Assembly (NCBI GenBank): GCA_030537465.1
Contig: JAUNMP010000001.1
Location: forward strand, 3,170 to 67,169
Reading direction: 5' to 3'
DNA from: a bacterium
GTDB taxonomy: Bacteria; Verrucomicrobiota; Kiritimatiellia; RFP12; UBA1067
Length of the DNA: 64,000 bases
Below are positions 8,157 to 51,665 of the stretch, piece by piece. A program made the position numbers and the translations under genes. Position 1 is the first letter of the stretch. Each line of letters starts with the position of its first letter. The notes under the pieces were generated by a model. That model did not search any database, was not told where the DNA came from, and was given only the letters and a program-made list of their open reading frames with translations.

Positions 8157-8987
8157 TTAGAACGAGAACGTGCAGTTCACGCCGCCCCAGACCAGCTGGT
8201 CCTTGCCGCAGCCCATGTAGTCGAGATGACGCAGGGTGTGGGAGGGAATCCAGGTGTAGTTGATCTGCGCGCCGACGGAGATGTTGTCCGTGATGGCATA
8301 GGCCGCGGCGACACCGATCGTGGAGTCGGTCAGTTCCGTTCCGGCGTCCACGCCCGTGACGTATTCGCTCCAGGCGTTGTCGCCGAAGCCGAGCGAGGCG
8401 GACGGGGTGATCGTCAGCTTGTCGACCGGTTCGAACTCGTGGGAGATGCCGAACGTGAAGTAGACCACGGAGGGGTCGGCGTCATGCGCGGAGTTGTAGT
8501 TCCAGTACGCGGCGGCGCTCGGCGTGATGATGTCGTTGTTGTAGGCAACGGACGCGTAGAGGTCCTGGTCGGAGGAGCCGTTGTTCTTCGGGAACGTGTA
8601 GAAGATTTGCCCAAGCTCGAAGTCGAAGTCCTTCACGCTGATTGAATAGGTGAGCGTGTAGTCGATCTCCTGGAGTCCGCAGGCCTGACGGCTGTTCGTC
8701 GCCGTGCCACGCTTGTGTGTGAGGTCGTAGGACTGCCAGATGTTGGCGGCGAAGGCCCCGTAGTCGCCCGTGTCGTATCCGAGCGTGAGGGACGGCTGCC
8801 AGACGGGATTCCCGTTGCAGATCGTGCCACGCCACATGTAGTCGCTCAGCACGTCCATGGAGAACTCGACGGACAGTCCGGCGGAGTCCACCTCCTCGAG
8901 CTCGTTCGTGGTCGCCTCCGCGGCCTTGGCGCCGCACGCGCAGAGAAGTGCCGTTGCCGCCGCCAGTGTGAATCTTGTCGCATTCAT
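8157..8987 (-). CDS. TorF-family putative outer-membrane porin (Gcw_chp / TIGR02001-like beta-barrel)
   Basis: Signal peptide MNATRFTLAAATALLCACGA. The alternating beta-strand pattern with DYMWRGT and VWQPSLTLGYD matches the TorF/Gcw_chp family signature (DYvfRGiSqt). Ends in an aromatic residue (TFSF). Start chosen at ATG 8987 (8993 is also possible). It is divergent from the TRAP operon. Confidence 0.55.
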   Translation of the reverse strand: MNATRFTLAAATALLCACGAKAAEATTNELEEVDSAGLSVEFSMDVLSDYMWRGTICNGNPVWQPSLTLGYDTGDYGAFAANIWQSYDLTHKRGTATNSRQACGLQEIDYTLTYSISVKDFDFELGQIFYTFPKNNGSSDQDLYASVAYNNDIITPSAAAYWNYNSAHDADPSVVYFTFGISHEFEPVDKLTITPSASLGFGDNAWSEYVTGVDAGTELTDSTIGVAAAYAITDNISVGAQINYTWIPSHTLRHLDYMGCGKDQLVWGGVNCTFSF

Positions 8988-9308
8988 GGTCATTGTCCTT
9001 CTTTGTGTTTTGCAGTGTCGTTGGTTGGATTTTGAACGACGCCAGATATCTAGCACAAACCGTGCCAAATCCCCGAACAGGCTTTTTCGACTGTGGAAGA
9101 AGGGGGCCGGAAGGGGCTATATTACACATTTTGTTGGTTGCTTGAGCAACAGGTTTAAAAAGTGTTAAACCGCATGCTACAAGTTCTTGCAATGGGTTGC
9201 AGACTTTGTACATCCCGTGTAACGGGTCTTGAAAATCGCGTGCCGGAGCCGAAAATCGGCGGATTGGACGGGTGCAAGTGGAACTACGCACACGTGTACG
9301 CGAGACTT

Positions 9309-9324
9309 TGGCACGGTCCTTGCT
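9309..9324 (+). promoter_or_regulatory. sigma-54 (RpoN) -24/-12 promoter upstream of the TRAP-eut operon
   Basis: TGGCACggtccTTGCT is an exact match to the TGGCAC-N5-TTGCW consensus. It sits 67 nt upstream of the dctP-like ATG (9391). DctP-type transporters are classically sigma-54/NtrC-family regulated. Confidence 0.5.
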
Positions 9325-9390
9325 AAAAGTGGTGCGTCGTTCAAGGGCGTCCGATGTGCGGAGGCCGAACGACACAAGGAGAAAGACAAG

Positions 9391-10497
9391 ATGAAAGCGA
9401 AGACGAACAAAGTGGCACCGGCGGGCAACCGCCGTGAGTTTCTGAAACTTCTCGGCACGGGCGCGGCGGCCGCCGCGGTGGCTGGCTGCGGGAAGCCGAC
9501 GCCACAGGAGAAGAACGTCTCCGTCCCCCAGACGCACAAGATGATCAAGTGGCGTTTCCAGACCTACGCCGGAACAGCCCTTGCGCAGCACGTGTGCAAG
9601 CCCGCGATCGACGCGTTCAACAAGGTCGCCGGCAACCGCATGCACATCGACCTCTACTATGCGGACCAGCTCGTGCCGACGTCTGAACTCTTCAGCGCGC
9701 TGCAGGCGGGCACGATCGACGCCGTGCAGAGCGACGACGACTCGATGTCGTCCGCGGCGGACGTCCGCGTCTTCGGCGGCTACTTCCCGTTCGCGTCGCG
9801 CTATTCGCTGGACGTGCCGGTACTCTTCTCGAAGTATGGCCTCGACAAGATCTGGGCCGAGTCCTACAAGGAGGCCTCCAACGGCCAGGTCACTTGGCTC
9901 TCGGCAGGCTCCTGGGATCCCTGCCACTTCGCGACGAAGAAGCCGATCAACCACCTCTCCGACCTCAAGGGACTCAAGGTGTACACGTTTCCGACGGCGG
10001 GCAAGTTCCTCAGCCAGTTCGGCGTGGTGCCGGTGACGCTGCCGTACGAGGACGCCGAGATGGCGCTCCGCACGGGTACGCTGGACGGCGTCGCGTGGTC
10101 CGGCATCACCGAGGACTACACGGTTGGCTGGGCCGACGCCTGCAAGTACTTCCTCACGAACTCCCTTTCCGGTGCGTGGATCGGCTCCTACTTCGCCAAC
10201 ACGAAGAGCTGGGAGGCGGTTCCGGAGGACCTGAAGGAGCTCTTCAAGCTCTCGATGGACTCCTCGCACTACTATCGTCAGCACTGGTACTGGGGAGGCG
10301 AGGCCGACCTGCGCGTCAACGGCGGCAAGCTGCAGCTCTGCTCCATCCCCGAGGAGGAGTGGAAGACTGTCGAGGAGAAGGCCGTGCCGTTCTGGGAGGA
10401 GATCGCCAAGAGCTCCCCGCGTGCGAAACAGGTCGTCGAGGCCTTCCGCAAGTACAACGCCGTGATGGCGAAGGCCGGCAAGCCGTATCGGTACTAG
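9391..10497 (+). CDS. dctP: TRAP transporter substrate-binding protein (DctP family) with TAT/Sec signal
   Basis: RBS AAGGAGAAAG before the ATG. Signal MKAKTNKVAPAGNRREFLKLLGTGAAAAAVAGC. Family blocks SELFSALQAGTIDAV and LSDLKGLKVYT...LPYEDAEMALRTGTLDGV match the DctP/TIGR00787 pattern. Confidence 0.75.
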   Translation: MKAKTNKVAPAGNRREFLKLLGTGAAAAAVAGCGKPTPQEKNVSVPQTHKMIKWRFQTYAGTALAQHVCKPAIDAFNKVAGNRMHIDLYYADQLVPTSELFSALQAGTIDAVQSDDDSMSSAADVRVFGGYFPFASRYSLDVPVLFSKYGLDKIWAESYKEASNGQVTWLSAGSWDPCHFATKKPINHLSDLKGLKVYTFPTAGKFLSQFGVVPVTLPYEDAEMALRTGTLDGVAWSGITEDYTVGWADACKYFLTNSLSGAWIGSYFANTKSWEAVPEDLKELFKLSMDSSHYYRQHWYWGGEADLRVNGGKLQLCSIPEEEWKTVEEKAVPFWEEIAKSSPRAKQVVEAFRKYNAVMAKAGKPYRY

Positions 10498-10511
10498 GAA
10501 GTGAGGAAATG

Positions 10512-10546
10512 AGGAACTAGGAAATGAGGGAGAATTCCTAGTTCCT
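10512..10546 (+). promoter_or_regulatory. Intercistronic stem-loop between dctP and dctQ (11-bp perfect stem)
   Basis: aggaactagga (10512-10522) pairs with tcctagttcct (10536-10546) across a 13-nt loop, followed by a second agttcct copy. Typical position for SBP/permease differential-expression hairpins. Confidence 0.4.
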
Positions 10547-10579
10547 AGTTCCTGGTTCCTTTTAAAAGGGGTTTTTGAT

Positions 10580-11728
10580 ATGTTGAAATATGTCAGAATC
10601 GTGGAGGCGATGACCCGAGGGCTCGGTCTTGCCTCCATGTATTTGCTGTTGGTCGTGCTGGGAGTTCTGATGTTCCCCGTCTTTGCCCGGGGAGGGGACA
10701 TCTCCACGATCTGGGCACTGGAGGCGGCGCAGTTCGCCGTGGGCGCCTACTACATCCTCGGGGCGGGCTATTCGCTTCAGCAGGGCGCGCATGTGCGCAT
10801 GGACTTCCTCTATGCCAACTGGAAACCGCGGACGAAGGCGATCGTCGATTCGATCACCTCGTTCTTCGTGCTGTTCTACCTGGTGGTGATGATCCTGGGC
10901 GGCTGGGACAGCTGCGCATACGCGGTCGTCTCGAAGCAGATCAACCACACGGTGTGGGCGCCCTATATGGCCCCGATCAAGATCGCGATGCTCGTGGGCA
11001 TGTTCTTCATGTTCCTGCAGATGACGGCCGAGTTCGTCAAGTCGCTGATGATTGCGCTGAAGAAGCCGATCGAGCTTCCGGACGCGGAGGCAGAGGAGGA
11101 GAGGCTCTACGAAGGGCGCGCGACGCGCAAGGAGTACTGGAAGACCTTTGCGGGATGCGCCGCGCTGGCCCTCGCCGGTTCGGCCCTGCTCGTGGTGGGA
11201 TTGCCGCGCGTGACGCCGGGAGGCGGCTTCGGGCTACTGCTGACGATCATCGGCGGCGTTCTCTGCGTGGCGGCGCCGATCTGCTCGATTCCTGTCTCGA
11301 TTCGCCGTCTGCACGACCTCGACATGAGCGGCTGGTGGGCGGTCGCGCTCTGGTTTTTCGGACTGATTCCCGGCTTCGGCATTCTCGTGTTCATCGCCGC
11401 GGCGTTCCTCTTCAGCACCGATGGCGCGCCGGGCACGACCGGCTTCGGTCCGGATCCGAAGGGCCGTGACCTCATCAAGCTCTTCGATCCGCGTCTGCCC
11501 GCAAAGCAGAAGCCGATCCCCGAGGTTCCCGTGCCGTCGAATCCGGATGTCGAGCATGCCTACTGGACGCCGTATCTGGTCTTCGGCGTCGTCGGCCTGC
11601 TGGCGGCGCTGGGTGGCTACGGGCTCTCCGTGCTGACCTCCAATCCCACCTGGTTCGTCCAGGGCGTGGTCGTCTTCCTTCTCTCACTCATGGCCTTGGT
11701 GCGAGGTGTCGTATGTATGAATCGATGA
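10580..11728 (+). CDS. dctQ: TRAP transporter small permease (DctQ) fused to a C-terminal DUF805 (YhaH-like) membrane domain
   Basis: The N-terminal ~170 aa are a 4-TM DctQ-like protein. The C-terminal part carries RRLHDLDMSGWW...LIPGFGILVF...GFGPDP, the DUF805 signature. Overlaps the dctM start by 16 nt. Confidence 0.65.
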   Translation: MLKYVRIVEAMTRGLGLASMYLLLVVLGVLMFPVFARGGDISTIWALEAAQFAVGAYYILGAGYSLQQGAHVRMDFLYANWKPRTKAIVDSITSFFVLFYLVVMILGGWDSCAYAVVSKQINHTVWAPYMAPIKIAMLVGMFFMFLQMTAEFVKSLMIALKKPIELPDAEAEEERLYEGRATRKEYWKTFAGCAALALAGSALLVVGLPRVTPGGGFGLLLTIIGGVLCVAAPICSIPVSIRRLHDLDMSGWWAVALWFFGLIPGFGILVFIAAAFLFSTDGAPGTTGFGPDPKGRDLIKLFDPRLPAKQKPIPEVPVPSNPDVEHAYWTPYLVFGVVGLLAALGGYGLSVLTSNPTWFVQGVVVFLLSLMALVRGVVCMNR

Positions 11729-13155
11729 GTCTGATTGAGTTCCTGCAGGCGAGCCCGGGGATCATCATCTTCATGATGTTCTCCCTGCTGATGGCGCTGA
11801 TGCTCACAGGGCAGCGCGTGTTCGGCGTGATGGGCTTCGTGGGCGTGGTCTTCGCGCTGATCTTCGTGGACCGCGGTGCGCTGGGGTACGGCTTCAACGC
11901 GGCGATCAAGCTGTTCAACTGGTATCCGATGCTGACGCTGCCGATGTTCGTGTTCATGGGCTTCATGCTCAGCGAGTCCGGCATCGCCAACGACATGTAC
12001 CACATGTTCCACGTCTGGTTCGGCGGACTGCGGGGTGGACTCGCGGTCGGCACGCTCCTTGTGATGATCATGATCTCATGCATGAACGGCCTCTCGGTCG
12101 CCGGCATGGCGATTGGCTGCTCGGTGGCGCTCCCCGAACTGCTGAAGCGCAACTACGACAAACGAATGATCTCGGGCGTGATCCAGGCGGGATCGAGTCT
12201 GGGAATCCTGTTCCCGCCGTCGATCGTGCTCGTGCTCTACGGAATGATCGCGCGTGAGCAGGTGAAGGACCTCTGGCTCGCCGGCATTGGTCCGGCCATG
12301 CTGCTCTCGCTGCTCTTCTTCGGCTACGTGGTGATCCGCTGCCGGATCAATCCGAAGCTGGGTCCGGTGCTCCCGAAGGAGCAGCGCAACTTCAGCTGGG
12401 CCGAGAAGTTCAAGGTTCTGCGGGCGGGCATTCTGCCGATCATCCTGGTGCTCAGCGTCATCGGGTCGTTCTTCAGCGGACTCACCTCCCTGGAGGAGAG
12501 CTCGGCAGTGGGAGCGCTCGCAGCGTTCCTGATCGCGCTCTTCAAGAAGCGCCTCACGATGAAGGTCTTCACCAAGACCCTCAAGGAGACGCTACACAAC
12601 TCTGCGATGTTCCTGTGGATCATGATGGCGGCGCTGAGCTTCTCGGCTGTGTTCGACTCGCTCCACGCGGTCGATGTGCTGAAGCAGTTCTTCACCTCTG
12701 ACCTCGGACTTTCGCCCTGGTGCGTGCTCTTCATGATGCAGCTCGCGTTCATCGTCCTGGGCATCTTCCTGGACGACACGGCCATGCTGATCATCGTGGC
12801 GCCGCTGTTCATCCCGCTGGTGAAGGAGCTGGGCTTCTCCTCCATCTGGTTCGGCGTGCTCTACACGATCACCTGCCAGATCGCCTACATCACGCCGCCG
12901 TTCGGGTACAATCTGTTCATGATGCGCGCGATGAGTCCGGACTCGATCACGATCAAGGACATCTACTCCTCGATCATCCCGTTCCTGATTCTGATGGTAA
13001 TCGCCATCGTGCTGATCATGGTGTTCCCGAGCATCGCGCTCTGGTTCCCTGACTACGTTAACGGCAAGGTGGTCGGTCCCGTCGACTGGCTCATCGCGCA
13101 CTGCGGCTGGTTCAAGGACCTCTGCGCTTCGTCGTTCCACTATGTGCTGCCTTGA
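11713..13155 (+). CDS. dctM: TRAP transporter large permease (DctM family)
   Basis: 480-aa polytopic membrane protein with 12+ predicted TM helices and Gly-rich loops. Its position after dctP/dctQ supports the call. Its start overlaps the dctQ stop. Confidence 0.75.
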   Translation: MYESMSLIEFLQASPGIIIFMMFSLLMALMLTGQRVFGVMGFVGVVFALIFVDRGALGYGFNAAIKLFNWYPMLTLPMFVFMGFMLSESGIANDMYHMFHVWFGGLRGGLAVGTLLVMIMISCMNGLSVAGMAIGCSVALPELLKRNYDKRMISGVIQAGSSLGILFPPSIVLVLYGMIAREQVKDLWLAGIGPAMLLSLLFFGYVVIRCRINPKLGPVLPKEQRNFSWAEKFKVLRAGILPIILVLSVIGSFFSGLTSLEESSAVGALAAFLIALFKKRLTMKVFTKTLKETLHNSAMFLWIMMAALSFSAVFDSLHAVDVLKQFFTSDLGLSPWCVLFMMQLAFIVLGIFLDDTAMLIIVAPLFIPLVKELGFSSIWFGVLYTITCQIAYITPPFGYNLFMMRAMSPDSITIKDIYSSIIPFLILMVIAIVLIMVFPSIALWFPDYVNGKVVGPVDWLIAHCGWFKDLCASSFHYVLP

Positions 13156-13163
13156 GGTGACCG

Positions 13164-14558
13164 ATGAATCCTGTGACACTTGAGGTTGCCGGTCGGCATT
13201 GGACGTTCAACTCCCTGAAGGAGCTGATGGGCAAGGCGTCGCCGCTGCGAAGCGGCGACGTGGCGGCGGGCTGCGCCGCGAGTTGCGACGAGGAGCGTGT
13301 GGCGGCGCAGATGCTGCTCGCGGACGTGCCACTCGCGCAGTTCCTCGAGGAGCAGCTCATCCCCTACGAGAAGGACGAGGTGACGCGGCTGATCGTGGAC
13401 ACCCACGATGCCGCGGCCTTCGCCCCCGTCAAGAATCTCAGCGTAGGCGAGTTCCGCAACTGGCTGTTGCGCTACGAGACGGACGAGACCGTGCTCAAGG
13501 AGTTGGCGCCGGGATTGACACCGGAAATGGTCGCCGCCGTCTCCAAGGTCTGTTCCAATCAGGATCTGATCCTCATCGCTTCAAAGTGCCGTGTCGTCAC
13601 GGCCTTCCGCGACACAATCGGACTGAAGGGGTGCCTCTCGACGCGTCTCCAGCCCAACCATGCGACCGACGACCTCAAGGGCATCGCGGCGTCGATGCTG
13701 GAGGGGCTCCTCTACGGCTGCGGCGACGCGGTCATCGGCATCAATCCGGCGACGGATTCGGTGCCGATGATGCAGGAGCTCCTCAAGCTCATCGACGAAC
13801 TCATCCATCGCTACCACATCCCCACGCAGAGCTGCGTGCTCGCCCATGTGACGAACGCGATCGAGGTGATGCGGTCGGGGACGCCCGTGGACCTGGTCTT
13901 CCAGTCCATTTCCGGCACGGAAATCTCCAACAAGGTGTTCGGCATCAATCTCGGCATCCTGAAGGAGGCCTATGACGCCGCCTTGTCGCTCAAACGCGGC
14001 ACGGTGGGGCAGAACGTGATGTACTTCGAGACGGGGCAGGGGAGTGCGCTCTCCGGCCGCGGTGACTGGGGGGTGGACATGCAGACCTGCGAGGCGCGGG
14101 CCTACGCGGTGGCGCGTCCGTTCAAGCCACTGCTCGTGAACACGGTCGTCGGCTTCATCGGCCCCGAGTACCTCTACGACGGCAAGCAGATCATCCGCGC
14201 GGGACTAGAGGACCATTTCTGCGCCAAGCTGCTCGGGCTGCCGATGGGATGCGACATCTGCTACACGAACCACTGTGAAGCGGACCAGAACGACATGGAC
14301 ATCCTGATGACGCTTCTGGCGGCCGCAGGGCTCAACTACCAGATGGCCATCCCCGGAGGGGACGACGTCATGCTCGGCTACCAGACCACGAGCTACCACG
14401 ACATACACTACGTGAGACAGCTGCTGGGGAAGCGTCCAGCACCGGAGTTCGAGGCCTGGCTTGAGGAAATGGACCTGGTCGACGTGCGCCAGCGATTGAT
14501 CGCCCACAGAGGAGGAGAACATGCTCTTATCGACTACCAGCGCGGACTTGTCGCCTGA
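13164..14558 (+). CDS. eutB: Ethanolamine ammonia-lyase large subunit EutB
   Basis: Near-collinear match to EutB: ELRSGDVAAGCAAS..ERVAAQ, IPTQSCVLAHVT, NTVVGFIGPEYLYDGKQIIRAGLEDHF, CDICYTNH. It starts 8 nt after the dctM stop with RBS GAGGTGA. Confidence 0.95.
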   Translation: MNPVTLEVAGRHWTFNSLKELMGKASPLRSGDVAAGCAASCDEERVAAQMLLADVPLAQFLEEQLIPYEKDEVTRLIVDTHDAAAFAPVKNLSVGEFRNWLLRYETDETVLKELAPGLTPEMVAAVSKVCSNQDLILIASKCRVVTAFRDTIGLKGCLSTRLQPNHATDDLKGIAASMLEGLLYGCGDAVIGINPATDSVPMMQELLKLIDELIHRYHIPTQSCVLAHVTNAIEVMRSGTPVDLVFQSISGTEISNKVFGINLGILKEAYDAALSLKRGTVGQNVMYFETGQGSALSGRGDWGVDMQTCEARAYAVARPFKPLLVNTVVGFIGPEYLYDGKQIIRAGLEDHFCAKLLGLPMGCDICYTNHCEADQNDMDILMTLLAAAGLNYQMAIPGGDDVMLGYQTTSYHDIHYVRQLLGKRPAPEFEAWLEEMDLVDVRQRLIAHRGGEHALIDYQRGLVA

Positions 14559-15312
14559 TCCCTGGTCCGCCCTCAAGAACTTCACCACGGCCCGCATCGC
14601 CATGGGACGCGCGGGGGGGAGCCTGCGGACGGCGAATCTGCTCGACTTCCGTCTGGCCCACGCCCGTGCCCGAGATGCGGTGCATTCGGCGTTTCACGTC
14701 GAGACCATTCGCAGTCAGCTGTCGGAGGCGGGACTCGAGTACGTCGAGGTCCAGTCTCAGATCACGGACAAGCTCGACTACCTGCTGCATCCCGAGAAGG
14801 GACGTCTTCTGGCGGACGAATCGACGGAATTTCTGCGTGAAAAGGCGAAGAAATGGGGCATTCGCGACGTTTCTATCGTCATTTCGGACGGACTTTCCGC
14901 AATTGCCGCTGAATCGCACGCCGTCGCCGTCGCCAAGACGTTGCAGGCGGAACTACCCGAATGCACGTTCTACCCGGTCGTCGTCGTGCCGTTCGGCCGC
15001 GTGAAGATTGCCGACGCCATCTCGGACATTCTGCAGGCGAGGCTGGTGATTATCCTCCTGGGGGAACGTCCGGGACTCGGCTCCCCGGACTCCCTCAGTG
15101 CCTATTTCACCTACATGGCGCGGAACAGTTCGGTCGATTCGGACCGCAACTGCGTCTCGAACATCCGTCCCTTGGGAATGCCCATCCCGTGGGCCGTTCG
15201 CAAGCTTTCCGTGCTCATGCGTGAGTCCTTCCGCATCCGCCTGAGCGGAACGGGGCTCAAGGACCGCCTCACGCTTGACGATCTGCGCCGAATGTTGCCG
15301 CTTGCGGACTGA
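14521..15312 (+). CDS. eutC: Ethanolamine ammonia-lyase small subunit EutC (short N-terminus, no microcompartment-targeting peptide)
   Basis: NFTTARIAMGRAGGSLRTANLLDFRLAHARARDAV matches the EutC core. GGAGGAG RBS at 14511-14517. Overlaps the eutB 3' end by 38 nt. Confidence 0.9.
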   Translation: MLLSTTSADLSPDPWSALKNFTTARIAMGRAGGSLRTANLLDFRLAHARARDAVHSAFHVETIRSQLSEAGLEYVEVQSQITDKLDYLLHPEKGRLLADESTEFLREKAKKWGIRDVSIVISDGLSAIAAESHAVAVAKTLQAELPECTFYPVVVVPFGRVKIADAISDILQARLVIILLGERPGLGSPDSLSAYFTYMARNSSVDSDRNCVSNIRPLGMPIPWAVRKLSVLMRESFRIRLSGTGLKDRLTLDDLRRMLPLAD

Positions 15313-15381: not shown

Positions 15382-16869
15382 ATGAATCTTTCCAGACGTG
15401 GTTTCATTGGCGGTGCGGCGAGCTTTCTCGCGCTGTGCCAGGGGCGGGTTTTCGCTGCGAAACCGGGGGCCTTCACGGGTGGAACGCCGAGTTTGACATT
15501 TGGTGTTCTCTCGGACGTGCACATCTGCCTGGCGGCGGGTGGCAAGGCCCTCAAAAAGGGGTTCGAGACGGGTACCCTCGTGAAGGCCTTCGCCTGGTTC
15601 CGCGACAACGGCGCGGACGCTGTGGTGATTGCGGGCGACATGGCACATAGTGGCCTTGTCGGCGAACTGAAGGCTGTGGCAGATGCCTGGTTTCAGGTCT
15701 TCCCGGACGACAAGGCGCCGGACGGCCGCAAAGTCGAGCGGGTCTTCGTCTTCGGCAACCACGACTGGTCGAGTCCCGGACGTGCCAAGGAGGTCTTCCC
15801 CGACGAGGCCGAACGGAACGCGAATCTGCTCGTCAAGGATCCCCAGAAATGGTGGCAGGAGATCTTTCACGAACCGTGGACGCCGTTCTATCGGAAGACC
15901 GTGAAGGGGTATGACTTCATCGGCGCGCACTGGTGCAATGGCGGCTGCAACGGCAAGAAGGAAGTTTTCACCAAGGGAATGCGCGAATTCTACGCGGGGC
16001 AGAAATTCGATCCAGAGAAACCGTTCTTCCACATTCAGCATCCCCAGCCGAAGGGAACTGCCCATGGTGAAAACGTCTGGGGGCAAGACGACGGTGTGTC
16101 GACGGAGATTCTCTCCGCCCATCCGAACGCGGTGGCGTTTTCGGGGCACTCGCACACGTCGCTGACGGACGTCCGCAGCATCTGGCAGGGGGCGTTCACC
16201 AGCGTGGGCTGCGGGACGCTGCGTGATGTCAATCCGCTGCCGCCGTTGCCGCCTGGTACGACGACGTACGTGGGGGGCTGCGAGAACTACAAGTCGCCGA
16301 AGGGCGTGCCGGCCGAGAAGTTCGACGACCACAAGGCCCTGGCGATGATCGACAAGTACAATTGCCGTCAGGGACAGCTGGTCCGCGTCTATTCGGATCG
16401 CATGGTCTTCTCGCGGCGCGAGTTCGTGACGGGCGTTCAGCTGGGTCCGGACCTCGTGATGCCGCTGCCCGTCGGCGGCGAGAAGCCTTTCGCCTTCCCT
16501 GAGCGTCAGGCCAAGGCGAAACCGCCGGCCTTCCCGGCCGACGCGAAGCTCGCGGCGAAGAAGGTGATGGCCAAGCTGCGGCGCAAGAAGCCGAAGACGA
16601 AAGCCGAGTGCTGGGAGCTTGAATTCCCCGCGGCCAACGCCCAGAAGGGGGCGCGTCCGGCGCTCTACGAGATCAGCGCGCAGGGGGCGGACGGCAAGAC
16701 GTGCGCGTTCGGTCTGGCCTGCGAGGGATTTCGCTTCCCGCTCTCCGACAAGCGGGCGAAAAAGCCCCTCGTCTTCCGCGTCGACTGCAGCCGCGTGGCC
16801 GCGGAACCGATGTTCTCGGTTCGCGCCGTCTCCGCTTGGGGTAAATGGAGCGAACCGCTCAAGGCCTGA
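15382..16869 (+). CDS. TAT-exported metallophosphoesterase (calcineurin-like phosphoesterase)
   Basis: TAT signal MNLSRRGFIGGAASFLALCQG. Motifs GVLSDVHI, AGDMAHSG, GNHDW and GHSHT are present. It is paralogous (~45% identity) to the gene at 28289. Confidence 0.8.
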   Translation: MNLSRRGFIGGAASFLALCQGRVFAAKPGAFTGGTPSLTFGVLSDVHICLAAGGKALKKGFETGTLVKAFAWFRDNGADAVVIAGDMAHSGLVGELKAVADAWFQVFPDDKAPDGRKVERVFVFGNHDWSSPGRAKEVFPDEAERNANLLVKDPQKWWQEIFHEPWTPFYRKTVKGYDFIGAHWCNGGCNGKKEVFTKGMREFYAGQKFDPEKPFFHIQHPQPKGTAHGENVWGQDDGVSTEILSAHPNAVAFSGHSHTSLTDVRSIWQGAFTSVGCGTLRDVNPLPPLPPGTTTYVGGCENYKSPKGVPAEKFDDHKALAMIDKYNCRQGQLVRVYSDRMVFSRREFVTGVQLGPDLVMPLPVGGEKPFAFPERQAKAKPPAFPADAKLAAKKVMAKLRRKKPKTKAECWELEFPAANAQKGARPALYEISAQGADGKTCAFGLACEGFRFPLSDKRAKKPLVFRVDCSRVAAEPMFSVRAVSAWGKWSEPLKA

Positions 16870-16895
16870 TCTTCAAAGACAAAAGGAGTCAATCG

Positions 16896-17738: not shown

Positions 17739-17756
17739 CAACAAAGGAAAAACAAA

Positions 17757-18719: not shown

Positions 18720-18726
18720 GCGACGC

Positions 18727-20156: not shown

Positions 20157-23100
20157 ATGAAACGAGTGGTATTGATTGCGGCGGCGTGTCTGTCGTTGGG
20201 CGTCTGGGCGGATGGTTGGCGTTTTGCAGATGGGACGTTGACCTATTCCAAGGATGGTTCGGATTCCTGGAAGATGGTACCATCCGTGAAGGGTACGACG
20301 GTGACCCTGACCTCGCTGGAATCGACGATTCCCGCGGACGGGGTGATCGATTTCGTCGGTGCGCTCGAGGCGTATGGCCTCACGGGGACGGGGTATTCGC
20401 TGGTCTTCGCCGAAGGGGAGGGACTTTCCGTTTTCGCTTCGGCTTTGGACGTGCGGCTGGCCGGCTGTCCGTGGCTGGGGCGGATGGACAAGGCTGCGGG
20501 CGCACCGTTCGCGGGCGTGACGAATCTGGTCGTCGGGACGCTGGGGACGGATCTGGATTTTGGTAGCGGCACGGGAAATACGCAGACCGTGCCGCTGGAA
20601 AACGCCGTGTTCAGTACGGCGGCGAATCTTGCGTCCGTGGAGATCTACGGTGGCAACCTCAAACTGGCGAATGCCTGTAGCGGATCCGGGAACTTGAGGA
20701 CCGTTCTCGTCCAGTCCTCCGGCACGTTGAACATGGGTTCCTGTTCGTTCAACTGCGGCACGAAGCGTCTGATGACGTCGGCGAAGGTCATCGCGGGTGG
20801 AGATCTGAATCTGGGGTCGCGGACGTTTCGGACGTCCCTTGCGACCGGGGCATCCGTGTATGTCGAAGCTCCGACCAAGGCATCCGTTGTGCTGGACGCG
20901 TTTCCGCTCTACGAAACGGAAACGAAATATTGGATCAACCTCTATTGGAACGCACCGGCGCCGAAGACCGTGAACACGAGCACGGATGCCTTTGTCGGCA
21001 ACACGATTGTCAATTGGTTCGTCTACAATACACCGGACGTGGTGGCGGCCTGGCCGAAGATGAACAAGACGTCCACGGTACAATCCGCGGCGAATTCCAG
21101 CATGTGGGTTCGACTTCCGGTCGATCCGACGGACTGCACGGGGGAGGGTTTTTGGCGGGTGCGTGGCACGGATGAGAATCCTTACCGTGGCAGTTCGTCC
21201 GGATGGGGCGGATATGGCGCATTGTACTGGTTCGACATGCGCACGGGAGATTGGTCCTATGCGGACGGCGTCCTGACCTCCGCGCATGGGTGGAAGCTCC
21301 GCCCGTCCTTCAGCGACACGACGGTGACATTGACGTCCGAGGCCTGCACACCGCCTGCGGATGGCGTCCTTGATCTCTCGGGTGCGCTTCAGTCGATGGG
21401 TTCGGCGGCGCCGGCACCCCTCGCTGACCTTTCCCTGGTTCTGACTGAAGGGGACGGACTGACGGTCTTCTCCCAGGTGAAGGTGTTCAAGGCCGCGCAC
21501 TGTCCATGGCTTGGAAAGATGGGGAAGGGAAGCGGCGCGCCGCTGACGAGCCTGGAGGCGTTTTCGGTGGGCATGCCGTTTCGGGATCTGGTCTTCGGCG
21601 ACAGCACGGCGAACACGGGGACGTTCGACACGCGTGCCAACAGTGTCTTCAGCGGAACCTCGACGCTTCGGGAGGGCACGATCCAGGGGCGCAACGTCTC
21701 GCTCAACAATGCCTGTTCGGGGCACAAGACGCTGAAGAGGATCTCCGTCCGCGCGACGGGTACGCTCGACACGGGCGTCTGCGCGTTCAACAGCGGGGGA
21801 TCGAACTTCAATCTCGAGAACGTCTCGTTCGTGGCGGGAGGCAACATCAAGATCGGCGGGCGGACGCTTCGCGCGTCGGTCGCCTCGAATGCGGTCGTCT
21901 ATGTCGAAGCGCCGGCTTCGGCGACGGTGACCCTGGATGAATGGGCGTTCTTCCAGTCCAATGAAAAGTCCCCATTCTCGCTTTATTGGAATGCAGCCGC
22001 GCCGCGTACGGTCGCGACGACGACGAAGCCGATGAACAACAAGACTGTGGCGACCTGGTACTTCTACAATACGCCGGAACTGGTGGCGACCTATCCGGCG
22101 ATGAGCGAGACGAGCAGCGTGCAGTCGGCGTCCAAGTCGTCCCTCTATCTGCGTCTGCCGGTCGATTCGTCTGATACGACGACGGAAGGTTTCTGGCGGA
22201 CGGGAAGCAACACGGATGCGAACCTGGTTCGGGGAGGCAACGAGACGGGATATGGCCCGGCCTATTGGCATGCGCCGTCTGCGATTTCTCCGGGAAATTG
22301 GACATATGCCCAGGGTGTGCTTAAGTTCGTTGACGGGGGCTCCGTGCAGTGGGAGATCGTCCCGTCGGTTTCGAAGAAGACGCTGACGCTGACGTCGAAG
22401 AACGGGACTGCGGCGGCGAACGGTGTTCTGGATCTTGCGGGGGCCGTCGAGGCGCTGAACCAGGGTGGCGTGGACGTGGTGCCGGGAACGGATTGGACGC
22501 TGGTCTTCAATGATGCGGGCGGGGCGTTCGCGAAGGTGAAGGATCTGTCGCTTTCGAACTGCCCGTGGCTCGGACGGATGGAAAAGCAGGCCGGCGCGGG
22601 CTTCTCCGCGCTGGAGCGGATTTCCGTGGGCATGCCGGATGTCGATCTGGTGTTCGGAAATGGCGCGTACAATGCCCAGAAGGTCGAGCCCTCGTACAGC
22701 GTATTCCCCGATTCGGCGAATCTGGGCGAGGTGACGATTCTGGGTGATCGGCTCGAGTTGGATGATGCCTTTGCGGGTCTGCCCAACATTTCAAACGTCT
22801 ACGTCAAGGCGACAAGATTGTTGAATCTGGGGAACTGTTCCTTCAACGACGGCGAAGCGCGCAAGTTGAAGCGGGTGTCGTTCATTTCGGGGGGTAACCT
22901 GAATATGGGCTGGCGGACGACGCGCAATGCGCTCGCGTCCGATGCCGTGATCTACGTCGAGGCGCCGGCGACGGCAACCGTGACGTTGCAGGAATACAGC
23001 TTCTACAATGGAACGGGGACGTCCTATCCTGTGTCAATGTACTGGAATGCGCCGAAACCCGTCATCGCGCAGAACTACGCCGCCGCCAGCATCATGCTGA

Positions 23101-26100
23101 CCTGGTATGTCTACAATACGCCGGAACTCGCCGCGACCTGGACGGGAATGGACGGCACGTTCCAGAACCTGGCGCGGGACTTCTACATGAAGCTACCGGC
23201 GGATTTCTCCGACACGACCACCGAGGGTGGCTGGGTTGTCGGCGATCCGGGAAATCCGGGGAATGCCTACAACAAGGGCTTCTACAAAGCCTTTTGGTAT
23301 GCGCCGACCGTCGGTGTGAACGGGTGGTCGGTCGATTTGGCGGGACAGACGCTCTCCCATACGAACGCTGCGGGACTGAGGGACTGGGAACTTGTCCCGA
23401 CAATCAGTGGAACGGCGTTGACGTTGTCGCCGAATGGCGTGGGTACGGAGGTCCTGGACCTCTGTGGCGCGATTGAGACGCTTGATTCGTCTTTGTCAGG
23501 GATGGTGTTGTCCTTTGATACGGGAACGGGCGCGTTTGCGAACGTGAAGGAGCTCTACATCACGAATGCTACGTGGTTGGCGAAGATGGTGCGTCAGTCC
23601 GGCGCGTCGTTCGGGGCTCTTGAAAAGTTCGTCGTGGATACGGATGGTAATGACCTTGTCTTCGGGGATGGCACGCAGAATGCGTTGAACGTGGCGCGGT
23701 CGTACAGCGTGTTCAGCGAAAGTACGGTGCTGGCGGATGCGACGATCTGCGGCGGCAACGTCAAACTGGGCAATGCGTGTTCGGGCCATACGACGTTGAC
23801 GCAGGTCTGCGTGCGGGCAACGGGAACGCTGGACATGGGGTACTGCTCGTTCAACTGCGGCGAGAAGGTGTACAACATCCAGAATGCGTCCGTGATTGCG
23901 GGCGGGGATCTCAAGATGGGCACGCGAACCTTCCGTACGTCTTTTGCCGCAAACGCCAGTCTGTACGTCGAGGCACCTCCGACGGCGACGGTGACCCTTC
24001 AGAATTGGACGTTCTATCAGTCGAATCTCTCCTGTCCCGTCAAGATGTACTGGAATGCTCCGGCACCGAAGACGGATCACGCCCAGGTGATGAATGGCAG
24101 TACGGATGTCCACTGGTATGTCTACAACACGCCCGAAATCGTCGACGCATGGCCGACGATGGACGGTACGACCTTCCAGCGGATGTCCGATGGGGCGACT
24201 CTGATGATCAGACTTCCGGCCGATTGCGAAAACCAGTCCGAAGAGGGGGTCTGGTGCAACGACGGCAATCAAAACAATGCCTCGCTTCGCCGTGACAGCA
24301 ACGACTGGGGGTGGGGACCTGCCTATTGGTACAATCCGCTGCCGACGACGGAAGACTGGACCTACGACGCGGAGAACGGTCTCGTCTTCGTCCGCAATGG
24401 CGTCGCCCGCTGGCGCTTCACGCCGGCTCTTGAGGGGGCGAAGCTGACGCTCACCTCGCAGGCGGGATCGAACGTGCCGATGGACGGTCGTCTCGACCTC
24501 GCGGGAGCGCTGGAGAAGTTCGGTGGTGCGCTCGCGGGTTGTTCGATTCGCTTTGTTGAGGGCGACGGTGCGGCTGTGCTTTCGCAGGTCCGTGAGCTCT
24601 ACCTGACGAACTGCACGTGGTTGACGCATCTCGACGCCAGTGACGGCGCGGTCTTTACGGCTCTCGAGAAGCTCGTCGTGGGAACAGAAGGGCAGGATCT
24701 GGTCTTTGGCAGCGGCGCGGCGAATTCGAAAGACGCGGATGCGACGACGAGCGTCTTTCCCGGTGCGGCGGCGACACTGCGCGATGTGGTGGTGTTCGGT
24801 GGAAACGTCCAGCTGAAGAACGCCTTTGTCGGCGCCGGTGCGTTGACGCAGGCCGTTGTGAAGGCGACGGGCACGTTGGACACGGGAACCTGCTCGTTCT
24901 CCTTGCCGAACATGACGTTGAAGCGTGCCGAGCTCCGCGCGGGCGGAAACCTGACGATGGGCGACCGGACGTTCCGGACGGCCTTCGCCAAGAACGGGAA
25001 GCTGTATGTCAGCGCGCCGACCAACGCCGTCGTGACGTTGAATGCCTATCCGCTTCATCAGCGTGCCCTCTCCAAGCCGATCAGCGTGTATTGGAGCGCA
25101 CCGCCGCCGACGGGAACGAGTCAGGCTTCGTGGTCCTATCTGGACATGACCTGGTACGTGGACGCTGCCTATGCGCCGTGCTTCCCGCCGATGGGCGGTG
25201 CCGCAGTGACGAACCAGCTGAACGGTGGTTCGATCCGTCTGTCGCTGCCGGCGAATCCGAAGAACACGACGACGGCGGGATTCTGGCGTTGCGACAATGG
25301 CACGGGGGCGCCGGCCAACGGCGACAACGACCACGGGTGCGGCGCGGCCTACTGGTGCAATCGCTGGGAGGTCGAGGGACGGCCGTGCCGCTTCCTCTCG
25401 ATCGGCAACAGCTTCTCGCAGCAGATGTTCTCCTCGAGTTATAAGTTTGCGGCTTCGGCGAAACTGCTGGGACATCCGCTTGACGCGGTGGGATTGGTGA
25501 AGGGCGGCTGCTCGCTCCTGACGCATTGGAACATGCGGGCTGACAAGGGAACCTACACGCTTTACAAGGACTTCACCTCGAAGGAGAATCCTCTTGCCGG
25601 TCTGTCAGGAACGGATGTCTGTCTCACGGACGTTCTGGCGGCCGTGGACTGGGATGTCATCGTGATCCAGCAGGTCTCGACCGATTCGCCGAATCCGGAA
25701 ACCTACGAACCCTACATGGGCAATCTGGTTGCCCTATTCAGAGAGTTGGCGCCAAACGCCGAGCTCCGTTTCCAGCAGACCTGGGCCTATGACCGCGACT
25801 GTGCCATCAACTCCTCCTTCAAGTTCGGCGGCGACGTGGCGAAGCGCGATGCGATGTATGACAACATCCGCGATACAGTGGCGGAGGTCTGTGAACGCTA
25901 TGGCATGGGAATCATTCCGACGGGCTACGCCATTCAGCTCTATCGCTACGGACTTCCTGTCCGGACTGCCGCGCAGGACTTCTGCAGCGCCGACCACCGC
26001 CATATGAGCAATGGACAGGGCGGCAACTACCTCCAGATGCTGACCTGGTGCATGGCCGCCTTCGGCGAGATGCCGACGAAGACGCAGATTGCGCCGCCGA

Positions 26101-26444
26101 CGACGCCGACGGGCTTCGATGCCGATCTCGCCTGGATCTGTGCATCCAACGCCGTGATGTCCGTCGACCATCGCGACTATGGCCAGGGGACGGTCGACTT
26201 CAGCTACGACGTGACCTTCAAGGGACTCAAGGGCGAAGATCTGATGGTGCAGTCCGTGACGAACGGCGCCTTCGCCCTGCCGCCGGAAGGGAAGGCCTAC
26301 GGCCTGCGCATCACGGGATGGACGACGGAGGATGGGAGCGTGACCAATACGCCCGCCCAGATCCAAACGACGCCGGTCTATGACTGGCGAACCTGGTATC
26401 CCGTCGGAGGGGTGATTCCCGGCACGATGATTCTCTTCCAATAG
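20157..26444 (+). CDS. Giant secreted protein (2095 aa): five tandem ~345-aa repeats of an uncharacterised Cys/Trp-rich module plus a C-terminal DUF4886/SGNH-like esterase domain
   Basis: RBS AAGGGGGG precedes the ATG; signal MKRVVLIAAACLSLGVWA. Five repeats share the ordered motifs TLTS ... CPWLGRM ... NACSG ... CSFNCG ... GGDLNLGSRTFRTS ... YVEAP ... LYWNAPAPKT ... WYVYNTPE ... TEGFWR. The C-terminal FLSIGNSFS motif is DUF4886/SGNH-like. Confidence 0.8.
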   Translation: MKRVVLIAAACLSLGVWADGWRFADGTLTYSKDGSDSWKMVPSVKGTTVTLTSLESTIPADGVIDFVGALEAYGLTGTGYSLVFAEGEGLSVFASALDVRLAGCPWLGRMDKAAGAPFAGVTNLVVGTLGTDLDFGSGTGNTQTVPLENAVFSTAANLASVEIYGGNLKLANACSGSGNLRTVLVQSSGTLNMGSCSFNCGTKRLMTSAKVIAGGDLNLGSRTFRTSLATGASVYVEAPTKASVVLDAFPLYETETKYWINLYWNAPAPKTVNTSTDAFVGNTIVNWFVYNTPDVVAAWPKMNKTSTVQSAANSSMWVRLPVDPTDCTGEGFWRVRGTDENPYRGSSSGWGGYGALYWFDMRTGDWSYADGVLTSAHGWKLRPSFSDTTVTLTSEACTPPADGVLDLSGALQSMGSAAPAPLADLSLVLTEGDGLTVFSQVKVFKAAHCPWLGKMGKGSGAPLTSLEAFSVGMPFRDLVFGDSTANTGTFDTRANSVFSGTSTLREGTIQGRNVSLNNACSGHKTLKRISVRATGTLDTGVCAFNSGGSNFNLENVSFVAGGNIKIGGRTLRASVASNAVVYVEAPASATVTLDEWAFFQSNEKSPFSLYWNAAAPRTVATTTKPMNNKTVATWYFYNTPELVATYPAMSETSSVQSASKSSLYLRLPVDSSDTTTEGFWRTGSNTDANLVRGGNETGYGPAYWHAPSAISPGNWTYAQGVLKFVDGGSVQWEIVPSVSKKTLTLTSKNGTAAANGVLDLAGAVEALNQGGVDVVPGTDWTLVFNDAGGAFAKVKDLSLSNCPWLGRMEKQAGAGFSALERISVGMPDVDLVFGNGAYNAQKVEPSYSVFPDSANLGEVTILGDRLELDDAFAGLPNISNVYVKATRLLNLGNCSFNDGEARKLKRVSFISGGNLNMGWRTTRNALASDAVIYVEAPATATVTLQEYSFYNGTGTSYPVSMYWNAPKPVIAQNYAAASIMLTWYVYNTPELAATWTGMDGTFQNLARDFYMKLPADFSDTTTEGGWVVGDPGNPGNAYNKGFYKAFWYAPTVGVNGWSVDLAGQTLSHTNAAGLRDWELVPTISGTALTLSPNGVGTEVLDLCGAIETLDSSLSGMVLSFDTGTGAFANVKELYITNATWLAKMVRQSGASFGALEKFVVDTDGNDLVFGDGTQNALNVARSYSVFSESTVLADATICGGNVKLGNACSGHTTLTQVCVRATGTLDMGYCSFNCGEKVYNIQNASVIAGGDLKMGTRTFRTSFAANASLYVEAPPTATVTLQNWTFYQSNLSCPVKMYWNAPAPKTDHAQVMNGSTDVHWYVYNTPEIVDAWPTMDGTTFQRMSDGATLMIRLPADCENQSEEGVWCNDGNQNNASLRRDSNDWGWGPAYWYNPLPTTEDWTYDAENGLVFVRNGVARWRFTPALEGAKLTLTSQAGSNVPMDGRLDLAGALEKFGGALAGCSIRFVEGDGAAVLSQVRELYLTNCTWLTHLDASDGAVFTALEKLVVGTEGQDLVFGSGAANSKDADATTSVFPGAAATLRDVVVFGGNVQLKNAFVGAGALTQAVVKATGTLDTGTCSFSLPNMTLKRAELRAGGNLTMGDRTFRTAFAKNGKLYVSAPTNAVVTLNAYPLHQRALSKPISVYWSAPPPTGTSQASWSYLDMTWYVDAAYAPCFPPMGGAAVTNQLNGGSIRLSLPANPKNTTTAGFWRCDNGTGAPANGDNDHGCGAAYWCNRWEVEGRPCRFLSIGNSFSQQMFSSSYKFAASAKLLGHPLDAVGLVKGGCSLLTHWNMRADKGTYTLYKDFTSKENPLAGLSGTDVCLTDVLAAVDWDVIVIQQVSTDSPNPETYEPYMGNLVALFRELAPNAELRFQQTWAYDRDCAINSSFKFGGDVAKRDAMYDNIRDTVAEVCERYGMGIIPTGYAIQLYRYGLPVRTAAQDFCSADHRHMSNGQGGNYLQMLTWCMAAFGEMPTKTQIAPPTTPTGFDADLAWICASNAVMSVDHRDYGQGTVDFSYDVTFKGLKGEDLMVQSVTNGAFALPPEGKAYGLRITGWTTEDGSVTNTPAQIQTTPVYDWRTWYPVGGVIPGTMILFQ
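20211..25370 (+). repeat. Five in-frame tandem coding repeats (period about 1030-1045 bp) inside the giant ORF
   Basis: Repeat starts at about 20211, 21247, 22293, 23320 and 24351 (the D/W-x-Y-A-x-G-x-L motif). The repeats are ~40% identical at protein level, indicating ancient duplication rather than recent slippage. Confidence 0.7.
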
Positions 26445-31943: not shown

Positions 31944-31997
31944 GGGGATTGGGAACCCAAAAACAGGAACTAGGAATTGGGAGAAAGGACGATTTTC

Positions 31998-45871: not shown

Positions 45872-46483
45872 ATCGCTAACTTCACTCGTGTCAACTTCAA
45901 GATCCGCGTACCTTCGGTTCGCGTTCTTGACCAGAACGGCGCCATGCTGGGCGTCATGCCCACCAGCCAGGCCCAGCGCCTTGCCGACAGCCAGGGGCTT
46001 GATCTCGTCGAGATCACGCCGAACGCAGTGCCGCCCGTGTGCAAGATCATGGACTACGGCAAGTTCCGCTACGAGGAGTCCATCCGCGCGAAGAAGGCCC
46101 GCAAGGCCCAGAAGTCGACGCAGGTGAAGGAGATCAAGTTCCATCCCGGCACGGACATCGGGGATCTTCAGCACAAGCTGAAGCAGATCCGCGAGTTCCT
46201 CGGCGAAGGCAACAAGGTTCGTCTCTCGCTCCAGTTCCGCGGTCGCGAGAACGCGCACCGCGACATCGGCGAGGACAAGATCGCCGAAGTTCTGGAGATG
46301 CTGAAGGACGAGTGCTTCGTCGAGCAGGCGCCGAAGACCGATGGCCGAGTGCACTTCTGCCTGATCGGGCCGCCGCGCGCCAAGAAGGGCGGCGCCCCCG
46401 CCAAGCCCCAGATCGCAGTTGGATCTGCCGCCCCTGCGGGTGGAATCCAGATTTCGGTCGGTGCGCGTCCGCCGCAGGCGTAA
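45872..46483 (+). CDS. infC: Translation initiation factor IF-3 with a non-AUG (AUC) start codon
   Basis: The IF-3 N-terminal homology (NFTRVNFKIRVPSVRVLDQNGAMLGV) extends upstream of the first ATG (45944) to an in-frame ATC at 45872. An in-frame TGA lies at 45866-45868, and RBS AGAGGTGA precedes the ATC. infC classically uses AUU/AUC/AUA. Confidence 0.8.
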   Translation: MANFTRVNFKIRVPSVRVLDQNGAMLGVMPTSQAQRLADSQGLDLVEITPNAVPPVCKIMDYGKFRYEESIRAKKARKAQKSTQVKEIKFHPGTDIGDLQHKLKQIREFLGEGNKVRLSLQFRGRENAHRDIGEDKIAEVLEMLKDECFVEQAPKTDGRVHFCLIGPPRAKKGGAPAKPQIAVGSAAPAGGIQISVGARPPQA

Positions 46484-46578
46484 TTGTCAGGATCGCCGCA
46501 TCTGGCGACATGTGGAGAGGCCATGTGGCCTCTCCTTCTCTTTTGACTGAAACGGCCAGTTTTAGTACACTATCCGCC

Positions 46579-50223: not shown

Positions 50224-50227
50224 GACG

Positions 50228-51640: not shown

Positions 51641-51665
51641 CGCGCCGACGTGGAGGTCTGCAAAT

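Follow-up and report, generated by a model that had tools for sequence, protein, structure and literature searches.

A probable ethanolamine TRAP importer sharing an operon with the ethanolamine ammonia-lyase EutBC in a Kiritimatiellia genome

Ethanolamine-binding proteins of transporters of the tripartite ATP-independent periplasmic (TRAP) type have already been described. Csal_0678 from Chromohalobacter salexigens, the chain found in PDB entries 4UAB and 4XF5, binds ethanolamine and has no equivalent of Arg147 (PMC4646407). Its ethanolamine binding (PDB 4UAB) goes back to Vetting et al. 2015, as cited in PMC4646407 and PMC5812351. In the pocket, Glu220 serves as the platform residue and holds ethanolamine together with aromatic side chains (PMC12410723); this glutamate contacts both the amine and the hydroxyl of the ligand. 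EtoX, a homologue of Csal_0678 in Phaeobacter, binds ethanolamine with a dissociation constant (Kd) of 7.9 µM; it binds none of four other compounds (phosphoethanolamine, phosphocholine, G1P, and G3P; PMC10132767). TRAP import of ethanolamine is thus on record since 2015. In Chromohalobacter and Phaeobacter, the route described for ethanolamine is the gamma-glutamyl pathway (PMC10132767 for the Phaeobacter EtoXVW). A review of eut systems names only Eat and EutH as ethanolamine carriers (PMC5821096). In Pseudomonas aeruginosa, the short eut operon PA4022-eat-eutB-eutC depends on sigma-54 and EatR (PMC5821096). Here we describe an operon in which the genes of a TRAP transporter are followed by those of ethanolamine ammonia-lyase, eutB and eutC. 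It is found in a stretch of 64,000 nucleotides (nt) from a bacterium of the Kiritimatiellia (Verrucomicrobiota; contig JAUNMP010000001.1, positions 3,170 to 67,169), which is called the window below.

The best explanation of this operon is that an Eto-type TRAP transporter under sigma-54 control would take up ethanolamine and feed it to EutBC without a microcompartment shell. Judging from sequence comparisons, we give this explanation a probability of roughly 0.85. We favor ethanolamine as the substrate because the binding protein is a near-orthologue of a ligand-bound ethanolamine-binding protein and because the synteny is conserved. The operon consists of five genes on the forward strand. 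The dctP-type binding-protein gene (9391..10497) comes first and is followed, after a gap of 82 nt, by a dctQ-DUF805 fusion gene (10580..11728). dctM (11713..13155) overlaps the fusion gene by 16 nt, eutB (13164..14558) starts after a gap of 8 nt, and eutC (14521..15312) overlaps eutB by 38 nt. These are the five linked genes that a first-pass annotation of this DNA had proposed, and all of its junction coordinates match. Pfam and NCBIfam are concordant for DctP, DctQ plus DUF805, DctM, EutB (707 bits) and EutC (264 bits), and third-position GC is high in all five genes. AAGGAG is found 9 nt 5' of the ATG of the binding-protein gene. The ribosome-binding site of eutB (GAGGTG) spans the stop codon of dctM, and the ATG of eutC is preceded by the ribosome-binding site GGAGGAG. 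Note that dctM has an alternative start, an ATG at 11725, which gives a classic ATGA overlap with dctQ. The 38-nt overlap of eutB and eutC is kept in three related loci (L081, L083, and L085).

At the N-terminus of the binding protein, NRREFLK is a twin-arginine translocation (Tat) motif and VAGC is a lipobox. With these two signals it is probably a Tat-exported lipoprotein. The protein matches Pfam DctP (PF03480) with an E-value of 8.9e-19 and 68 bits (cut-off 23.4). Its best PDB match is 4UAB/4XF5 with ~70% identity and a phmmer E-value of 2.2e-148, a value from a single-sequence search and not from the profile of Westermann et al., whose family criterion is a profile match at E ≤ 1e-60. The alignment covers residues 49-368 end to end, interrupted by one indel of 3 residues, and the next PDB chain follows only at E = 4.6e-15. 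An exact search for the protein in an assembly index gives no record.

The pocket of the binding protein differs from that of carboxylate-binding TRAP proteins. In an alignment to a SiaP sequence with self-consistent numbering, the position of R127 is taken by C178 (WDPCHF) and that of R147 by Y198 (KVYT). The hallmark Arg147 of carboxylate TRAP systems, whose salt bridge holds the carboxylate of the substrate, is thus not found in this protein, where Tyr198 stands instead. The first-pass annotation had seen by eye that the carboxylate-binding arginine was missing, and had left the alignment to SiaP or DctP as a check; the alignment agrees with it at both positions. E241 (ITEDY) aligns with the glutamate of GITEDY in 4UAB, which is equated with Glu220 through a tag-offset inference and PMC12410723. 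All 89 family members that were compared have the glutamate of E241 and the cysteine of C178, and at position 198 they have only Tyr or Phe. The Trp, Tyr, and Phe residues of the conserved motifs are all invariant as well, and so are 106 of the 323 alignment positions. An AlphaFold2 (AF2) model of the binding protein is too poor for use (predicted local distance difference test score, pLDDT, 49.5). By its sequence, the protein belongs to the ethanolamine-binding type of Csal_0678 and EtoX. A ligand of the cationic type, which had been anticipated from the missing arginine, is consistent with this assignment, and ethanolamine would be that ligand.

The transporter could also be an ordinary organic-acid importer that lies beside eutBC without any functional link. 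Pfam and public annotation would agree with this, since they give generic DctP/DctQ/DctM or 'mannitol/chloroaromatic compound' transporters. Yet the equivalent of Arg147 is absent, the protein is ~70% identical (E = 2e-148) to a solved ethanolamine-binding protein, and the gene order is kept across phyla with reading frames that overlap or nearly abut. This alternative is effectively refuted already, and we leave it next to no chance.

Relatives of the binding protein, whose family comprises more than 4000 clusters, are found in three kinds of gene neighborhoods. In a scan with one genome per species, from which the best 80 loci were kept, eutB (usually with eutC) is a neighbor at 8 loci, and the gene order there is binding protein, DctQ, and DctM (P-Q-M) followed by eutBC. 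At about 55 loci the neighbors are a glutamine synthetase (GS)-like enzyme, an aldehyde dehydrogenase, and an Fe-alcohol dehydrogenase, and the order is Q-M-P. The remaining loci (about 17) have neither partner; most of them are Q-M-P and a few are P-Q-M, and several of these contigs end early. None of the 80 loci has eutBC and the gamma-glutamyl partners together. Eight further loci with eutBC came from targeted look-ups, giving 16 in total, from Kiritimatiellia, Verrucomicrobiota, Acidobacteriota, and Betaproteobacteria. The genes for the GS-like gamma-glutamylase, the aldehyde dehydrogenase, and the Fe-alcohol dehydrogenase are found neither at the locus in the window nor at any of these 16.

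The order P-Q-M-eutB-eutC is found in Kiritimatiellia (L001, L002, and L081-L085) and in metagenome-assembled genomes (MAGs) labelled Opitutaceae and Akkermansia (L005, L006, and L013). It also exists in two cultured bacteria, Geminisphaera colitermitum TAV2 (L086) and Luteolibacter sp. AS25 (L087), as well as in an Acidobacteriota MAG (L088) and in Zoogloeaceae (L003 and L004). In Hydrogenophaga palleronii (L011), eutBC is upstream of P-Q-M. Since this order recurs in related loci from several phyla, the linkage of the TRAP genes with eutBC is not due to chance. The co-occurrence that had been put forward earlier as a check is therefore found, as homologues of the binding protein co-occur with eutBC in 16 related loci of several phyla. 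L001 (CAVCJC010000043.1) is labelled as a MAG of Lachnospira hominis; it has 54% GC and a Kiritimatiellia-type operon with the Q-DUF805 fusion, the TorF-like outer-membrane protein, and a binding protein that is 85% identical to that of the window. This contig was probably mis-binned into a Firmicutes MAG.

A rough neighbor-joining (NJ) tree places the binding proteins linked to eutBC in a group of their own, separate from the gamma-glutamyl-linked clade. At position 198, this group mostly has Tyr and the characterised group Phe. These two observations would also be expected if the real substrate of the eutBC-linked subgroup were another small amino alcohol or amine (e.g., 2-amino-1-propanol or 1-amino-2-propanol), which EutBC would deaminate, with ethanolamine as a side ligand. 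It may also be counted in favor of such a substrate that the Csal_0678 sequence has been crystallised twice (4UAB and 4XF5). The ligand of 4XF5 is, as we presume, an aminopropanol, which would mean that the pocket tolerates close analogues. However, only 4 alignment positions separate the two groups of binding proteins, and the platform glutamate and the conserved aromatic residues are identical between them. EutB and EutC score very high against the families of ethanolamine ammonia-lyase, and ethanolamine is by far the most abundant compound of this kind in membrane-rich habitats (PMC5821096). A substrate other than ethanolamine is therefore quite improbable.

The identity of the enzyme is clear from its two subunits. 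EutB matches its Pfam family at 8.6e-213 and its NCBIfam family at 704.6 bits (cut-off 554), and its PDB matches are 2QEZ (8e-143) and 3ABO (1e-140). For EutC, the Pfam E-value is 9.6e-79, and the score to the NCBIfam equivalog is 269.4 bits, above the cut-off of 230. Compared with EutC of E. coli (E = 4e-34), residue 14 of the window protein aligns with residue 66. About 52 N-terminal residues are missing, so that the start corresponds to residue ~53 of the E. coli protein, and the open reading frame is not extendable upstream. EutC thus lacks the N-terminal extension for targeting to a microcompartment, as had been noticed before. Genes of a bacterial microcompartment (BMC) shell are not found in the window either: the called genes have no Pfam BMC or EutN match, and tblastn of the window with EutM, PduA, and EutN gives only matches with E > 0.3. 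The first-pass annotation was right on this point too. EutT, EutE, EutH, and Eat are not found in the window. In three of the related loci (L081-L083), a gene for a CobA/BtuR-type corrinoid adenosyltransferase is directly 3' of eutC, which fits an enzyme that uses adenosylcobalamin. The locus is a short, shell-less eut locus with a TRAP transporter in place of Eat or EutH.

A gene for a Tat-signal calcineurin-like metallophosphoesterase (15382..16869) lies 69 nt 3' of eutC on the same strand. We considered it as a member of the module that would release ethanolamine in the periplasm in the manner of GpdQ, and rejected it. The protein has no PDB or NCBIfam match, and its gene is not next to the operon in any relative. 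In L085, which is 86-92% identical to the window, synteny ends right after eutC, and the metallophosphoesterase is for this reason not taken as part of the module. Any release of ethanolamine from phospho-headgroups by this enzyme is pure speculation.

An exact match to the sigma-54 -24/-12 consensus (TGGCAC-N5-TTGCW) is found in front of the operon at 9309..9324 on the forward strand (TGGCACGGTCCTTGCT), 67 nt 5' of the start codon of the binding-protein gene (ATG at 9391). It is the sole exact match in the window, where 0.04 are expected by chance. The promoter that the first-pass annotation placed at 9309 is this site (TGGCAC-N5-TTGCT). It is kept in L085 as TGGCATGGTCCTTGCT. Sigma-54-like sites also exist 5' of the operon in the Opitutaceae MAG L005 and in Hydrogenophaga palleronii (L011), and in all, sigma-54 sites are found at the operon in three lineages besides that of the window. 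L005 has a gene for an enhancer-binding protein ~7 kb upstream of the operon, which is at most a candidate regulator. In the window, scans for sigma-70 promoters and for intrinsic terminators give results at chance level only. An Rfam scan of the whole window, in which a B12 riboswitch was sought, finds no riboswitch or other RNA family. Another sigma-54-like site (TGGCACATCGAGTGCT, 47203-47218, one mismatch) lies inside the cysteinyl-tRNA synthetase gene (46039..47937) and is probably a chance match.

Divergent from the operon, on the reverse strand, is a gene (8157..8993) whose 278-aa product is a beta-barrel protein of the outer membrane and a putative porin of the TorF/gcw_chp-like kind, with weak Pfam matches to MipA and OMP_b-brl. 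About 60 nt 5' of its ATG is a second sigma-54-like element with one mismatch (TGGCACGGTTTGTGCT, 9052..9067, reverse strand). This site is kept in L085, where the copy of the barrel is 98% identical, and it is near-identical to the site TGGCACGGTTTTTGCT of L001. In L001, a homologue of the barrel gene (60% identity) is located behind TGGCACGGTTTTTGCT, directly 5' of the binding-protein gene and on the same strand. The two divergent promoter regions of the window (9032-9069 and 9307-9344) are 76% complementary to each other and make up an imperfect inverted repeat of 38 nt. Because they mirror each other, they suggest that a promoter-plus-leader cassette has been duplicated and that the outer-membrane protein gene is co-regulated with the operon. 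The barrel gene is likely a member of the operon's sigma-54 regulon. The 240 nt between the divergent promoters have small palindromes (e.g., GTTGCTTGAGCAAC at 9137-9150), which could be activator sites.

The membrane subunits are also related to those of known Eto-type systems. DctM matches its Pfam family at 2.1e-64. It is 90% identical in the close Kiritimatiellia-like loci L001 and L002, and 57-69% identical to the DctM neighbors of Eto-type binding proteins in other phyla. For DctQ, partners in other phyla have 35-55% identity. The DctQ protein of the window is a fusion: residues 1-165 are DctQ (Pfam 1.8e-15) and residues about 178-291 are DUF805 (Pfam 1.6e-17), and C-terminal of DUF805 are two more helices that are predicted to span the membrane, with an SNPTWF loop. 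An AF2 model of low confidence (pLDDT 59.5) has a helix pattern of 4+3+2. The Pro-rich segment of the fusion, DGAPGTTGFGPDPKGRDLIxxFDPRxP, is conserved. Homologues of the fusion form 42 protein clusters with 65-98% identity, all of 382-389 aa. Those with a named source are from Kiritimatiellia in every case, and all contexts that were examined are P/Q-DUF805/M/EutB/EutC.

Another feature of the operon is a stem-loop followed by a U-rich stretch (10503..10561, forward strand), which lies in the gap between the binding-protein gene and dctQ (10498-10579). Its RNA fold has -30.3 kcal/mol with z = -3.75, and 0 of 200 shuffles are as stable. The hairpin is composed of short tandem repeats of the GGAACTAGGAA and GGAACTAGG types, as well as GGAACTAGGAAATGAG and its complement. 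The gap is 82 nt long in the window and 178 nt in L085 (9823-10000), and it is 2 nt in L001, where the hairpin is absent. It behaves as a repeat hairpin that expands and contracts among close relatives. The hairpin may serve to keep a higher ratio of binding protein to membrane subunits.

The DctQ-DUF805 fusion, the co-regulated TorF-like outer-membrane protein, and the variable hairpin 3' of the binding-protein gene are extras that are specific to Kiritimatiellia. One may ask whether the eutBC-linked branch is a functionally distinct third route by which ethanolamine reaches the classical eut pathway, and whether in Kiritimatiellia it has gained the DUF805/two-helix module and the TorF-like channel as parts of the machine; this is an unlikely extension. 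The DUF805 module might then adjust the transporter to a cationic substrate, either in its ion coupling or in how the lipid-anchored binding protein docks. No described function for DUF805 was found in a literature search, and an adapted module would give the domain its first functional context.

The proposed mechanism is as follows. Ethanolamine would cross the outer membrane, probably through the divergent TorF-like barrel. In the periplasm, it would be captured by the Tat-exported, lipid-anchored binding protein, where E241 and the aromatic residues are expected to hold the amino alcohol as in 4UAB. The loaded binding protein would dock on DctQ and DctM, and an elevator movement driven by an ion gradient, presumed from the TRAP family along with its coupling ion, would carry the ligand inward. 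EutB and EutC, which are translationally coupled, would then convert ethanolamine to acetaldehyde and ammonia with adenosylcobalamin and without a microcompartment. The acetaldehyde would be handled by housekeeping enzymes. That the promoter is of the sigma-54 type and that the operon has no aldehyde dehydrogenase suggests that its main use is to draw nitrogen from ethanolamine. Reportedly, the characterised TRAP systems of this type have likewise been tied to ethanolamine as a source of nitrogen.

A different view concerns only the physiological role. The operon could serve carbon and energy supply by ethanolamine fermentation via acetaldehyde, with a sigma-54 promoter that responds to an EatR-like activator sensing acetaldehyde and not to a nitrogen regulator. 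EatR of P. aeruginosa does sense acetaldehyde and drives the sigma-54-dependent short eut operon, which supports growth on ethanolamine as a carbon or nitrogen source (PMC5821096). Against this role, neither the operon nor the rest of the window has an aldehyde dehydrogenase, alcohol dehydrogenase, or phosphotransacetylase, a shell that could hold acetaldehyde is missing, and no activator gene is adjacent. We regard the carbon and energy role as possible, at odds clearly below even.

Some observations weigh against sigma-54-controlled ethanolamine uptake feeding EutBC as a whole. Both experimentally characterised binding proteins sit in the sister, gamma-glutamyl-linked group. The match of the outer-membrane barrel to the TorF family (NCBIfam TIGR02001, E = 3e-7) is under the cut-off, and the TorF-like protein is not found at the L081 and L083 loci. 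The window has no enhancer-binding protein (no GAFTGA motif and no Sigma54_activat domain). Finally, no eutA reactivase, corrinoid adenosyltransferase, or acetaldehyde dehydrogenase is found in the window; the reactivase and the adenosyltransferase support the cofactor and do not strictly define the enzyme.

The wider gene set of the window fits a glycan-degrading bacterium of the Kiritimatiellia/Verrucomicrobia group (Planctomycetes-Verrucomicrobia-Chlamydiae, PVC). The regions 16845-20136 and 50141-52499 encode several TIM-barrel proteins that resemble xylose isomerase and have a Tat signal or are periplasmic, as well as an FAD oxidoreductase and an oxidoreductase of the GFO/IDH/MocA type. 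A 2095-aa DUF4886 protein is encoded at 20157..26444, and a 1189-aa protein with HZS-alpha/FGE-sulfatase domains at 55099..58668. Another protein (31977-33938), which is encoded 17 kb from the operon, has a glycerophosphodiester phosphodiesterase (GDPD) domain and BNR/sialidase-like repeats. It could release ethanolamine precursors from glycerophosphoethanolamine.

The operon does not change what is known of TRAP transporters or of EutBC themselves. Its significance is that in many Verrucomicrobiota, in Kiritimatiellia, and in some Proteobacteria, including cultured strains, EutBC is hard-wired to a high-affinity, binding-protein-dependent transporter of the Eto type. Public records label these genes as generic or "mannitol/chloroaromatic" TRAP transporters, and their annotation can be improved. 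Scavenging of ethanolamine at low concentration becomes predictable for these glycan-degrading bacteria. The cultured carriers (Geminisphaera colitermitum TAV2, Luteolibacter sp. AS25, and Hydrogenophaga palleronii) allow the handling of cations by TRAP transporters to be studied.

Compared with known systems, the operon combines parts of several. It shares with SiaPQM and DctPQM a transporter built from three parts, which belong to the Pfam families DctP, DctQ, and DctM. In contrast to SiaP, Arg147, the selectivity filter, is replaced by Tyr and Arg127 by Cys, and the ligand would be a cation and not a carboxylate. The long eut operon of Salmonella and E. coli (EutH, EutBC, and the shell proteins EutSMNLK) has EutB and EutC homologous to those of the window, with E = 1e-140 and 4e-34, respectively, to the E. 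coli subunits. The window differs from it in having no shell genes, EutH, EutA, EutT, EutE, or EutR, and its EutC is without the N-terminal region of ~50 residues that contains the encapsulation signal in the long-operon EutC. With its shell-free EutBC, an importer gene in the operon, and a -24/-12 promoter, the P. aeruginosa short eut operon resembles that of the window. Its importer is the single-polypeptide permease Eat, whereas that of the window is a three-component TRAP transporter, and the window has neither an aldehyde dehydrogenase in the operon nor an adjacent divergent enhancer-binding protein.

The first-pass annotation took EutH and Eat to be the only known carriers and proposed a new ethanolamine TRAP importer. 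Its functional reading, in which a TRAP binding protein without the arginine brings in ethanolamine for an EutBC without microcompartment, is strongly supported. The statement on carriers is outdated with the publication of Csal_0678 and EtoXVW, and the word "new" does not hold, as the class has been published (Csal_0678 in 2015; EtoXVW, PMC10132767). In the searchable literature, the combination of an Eto-type TRAP transporter with EutBC, and not with the gamma-glutamylation pathway, appears to be undescribed. The open literature that was searched, in which the text of Vetting et al. 2015 was not covered, gave no paper on a linkage of TRAP and EutBC (only ectoine "eut" genes or unrelated work). 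Csal_0678 and EtoXVW of Phaeobacter sp. MED193 are the closest systems. They share with the window the binding-protein family, the pocket without arginine, the platform glutamate, and the Tat signal, and their DctQ and DctM partners are homologous to those of the window. Their gene order is Q-M-P, whereas that of the window is P-Q-M. Their genes adjoin those of a GS-like gamma-glutamylase, an aldehyde dehydrogenase, and an Fe-alcohol dehydrogenase, whereas the partner in the window is EutBC, the binding protein is on a separate branch, and DctQ is fused to DUF805.

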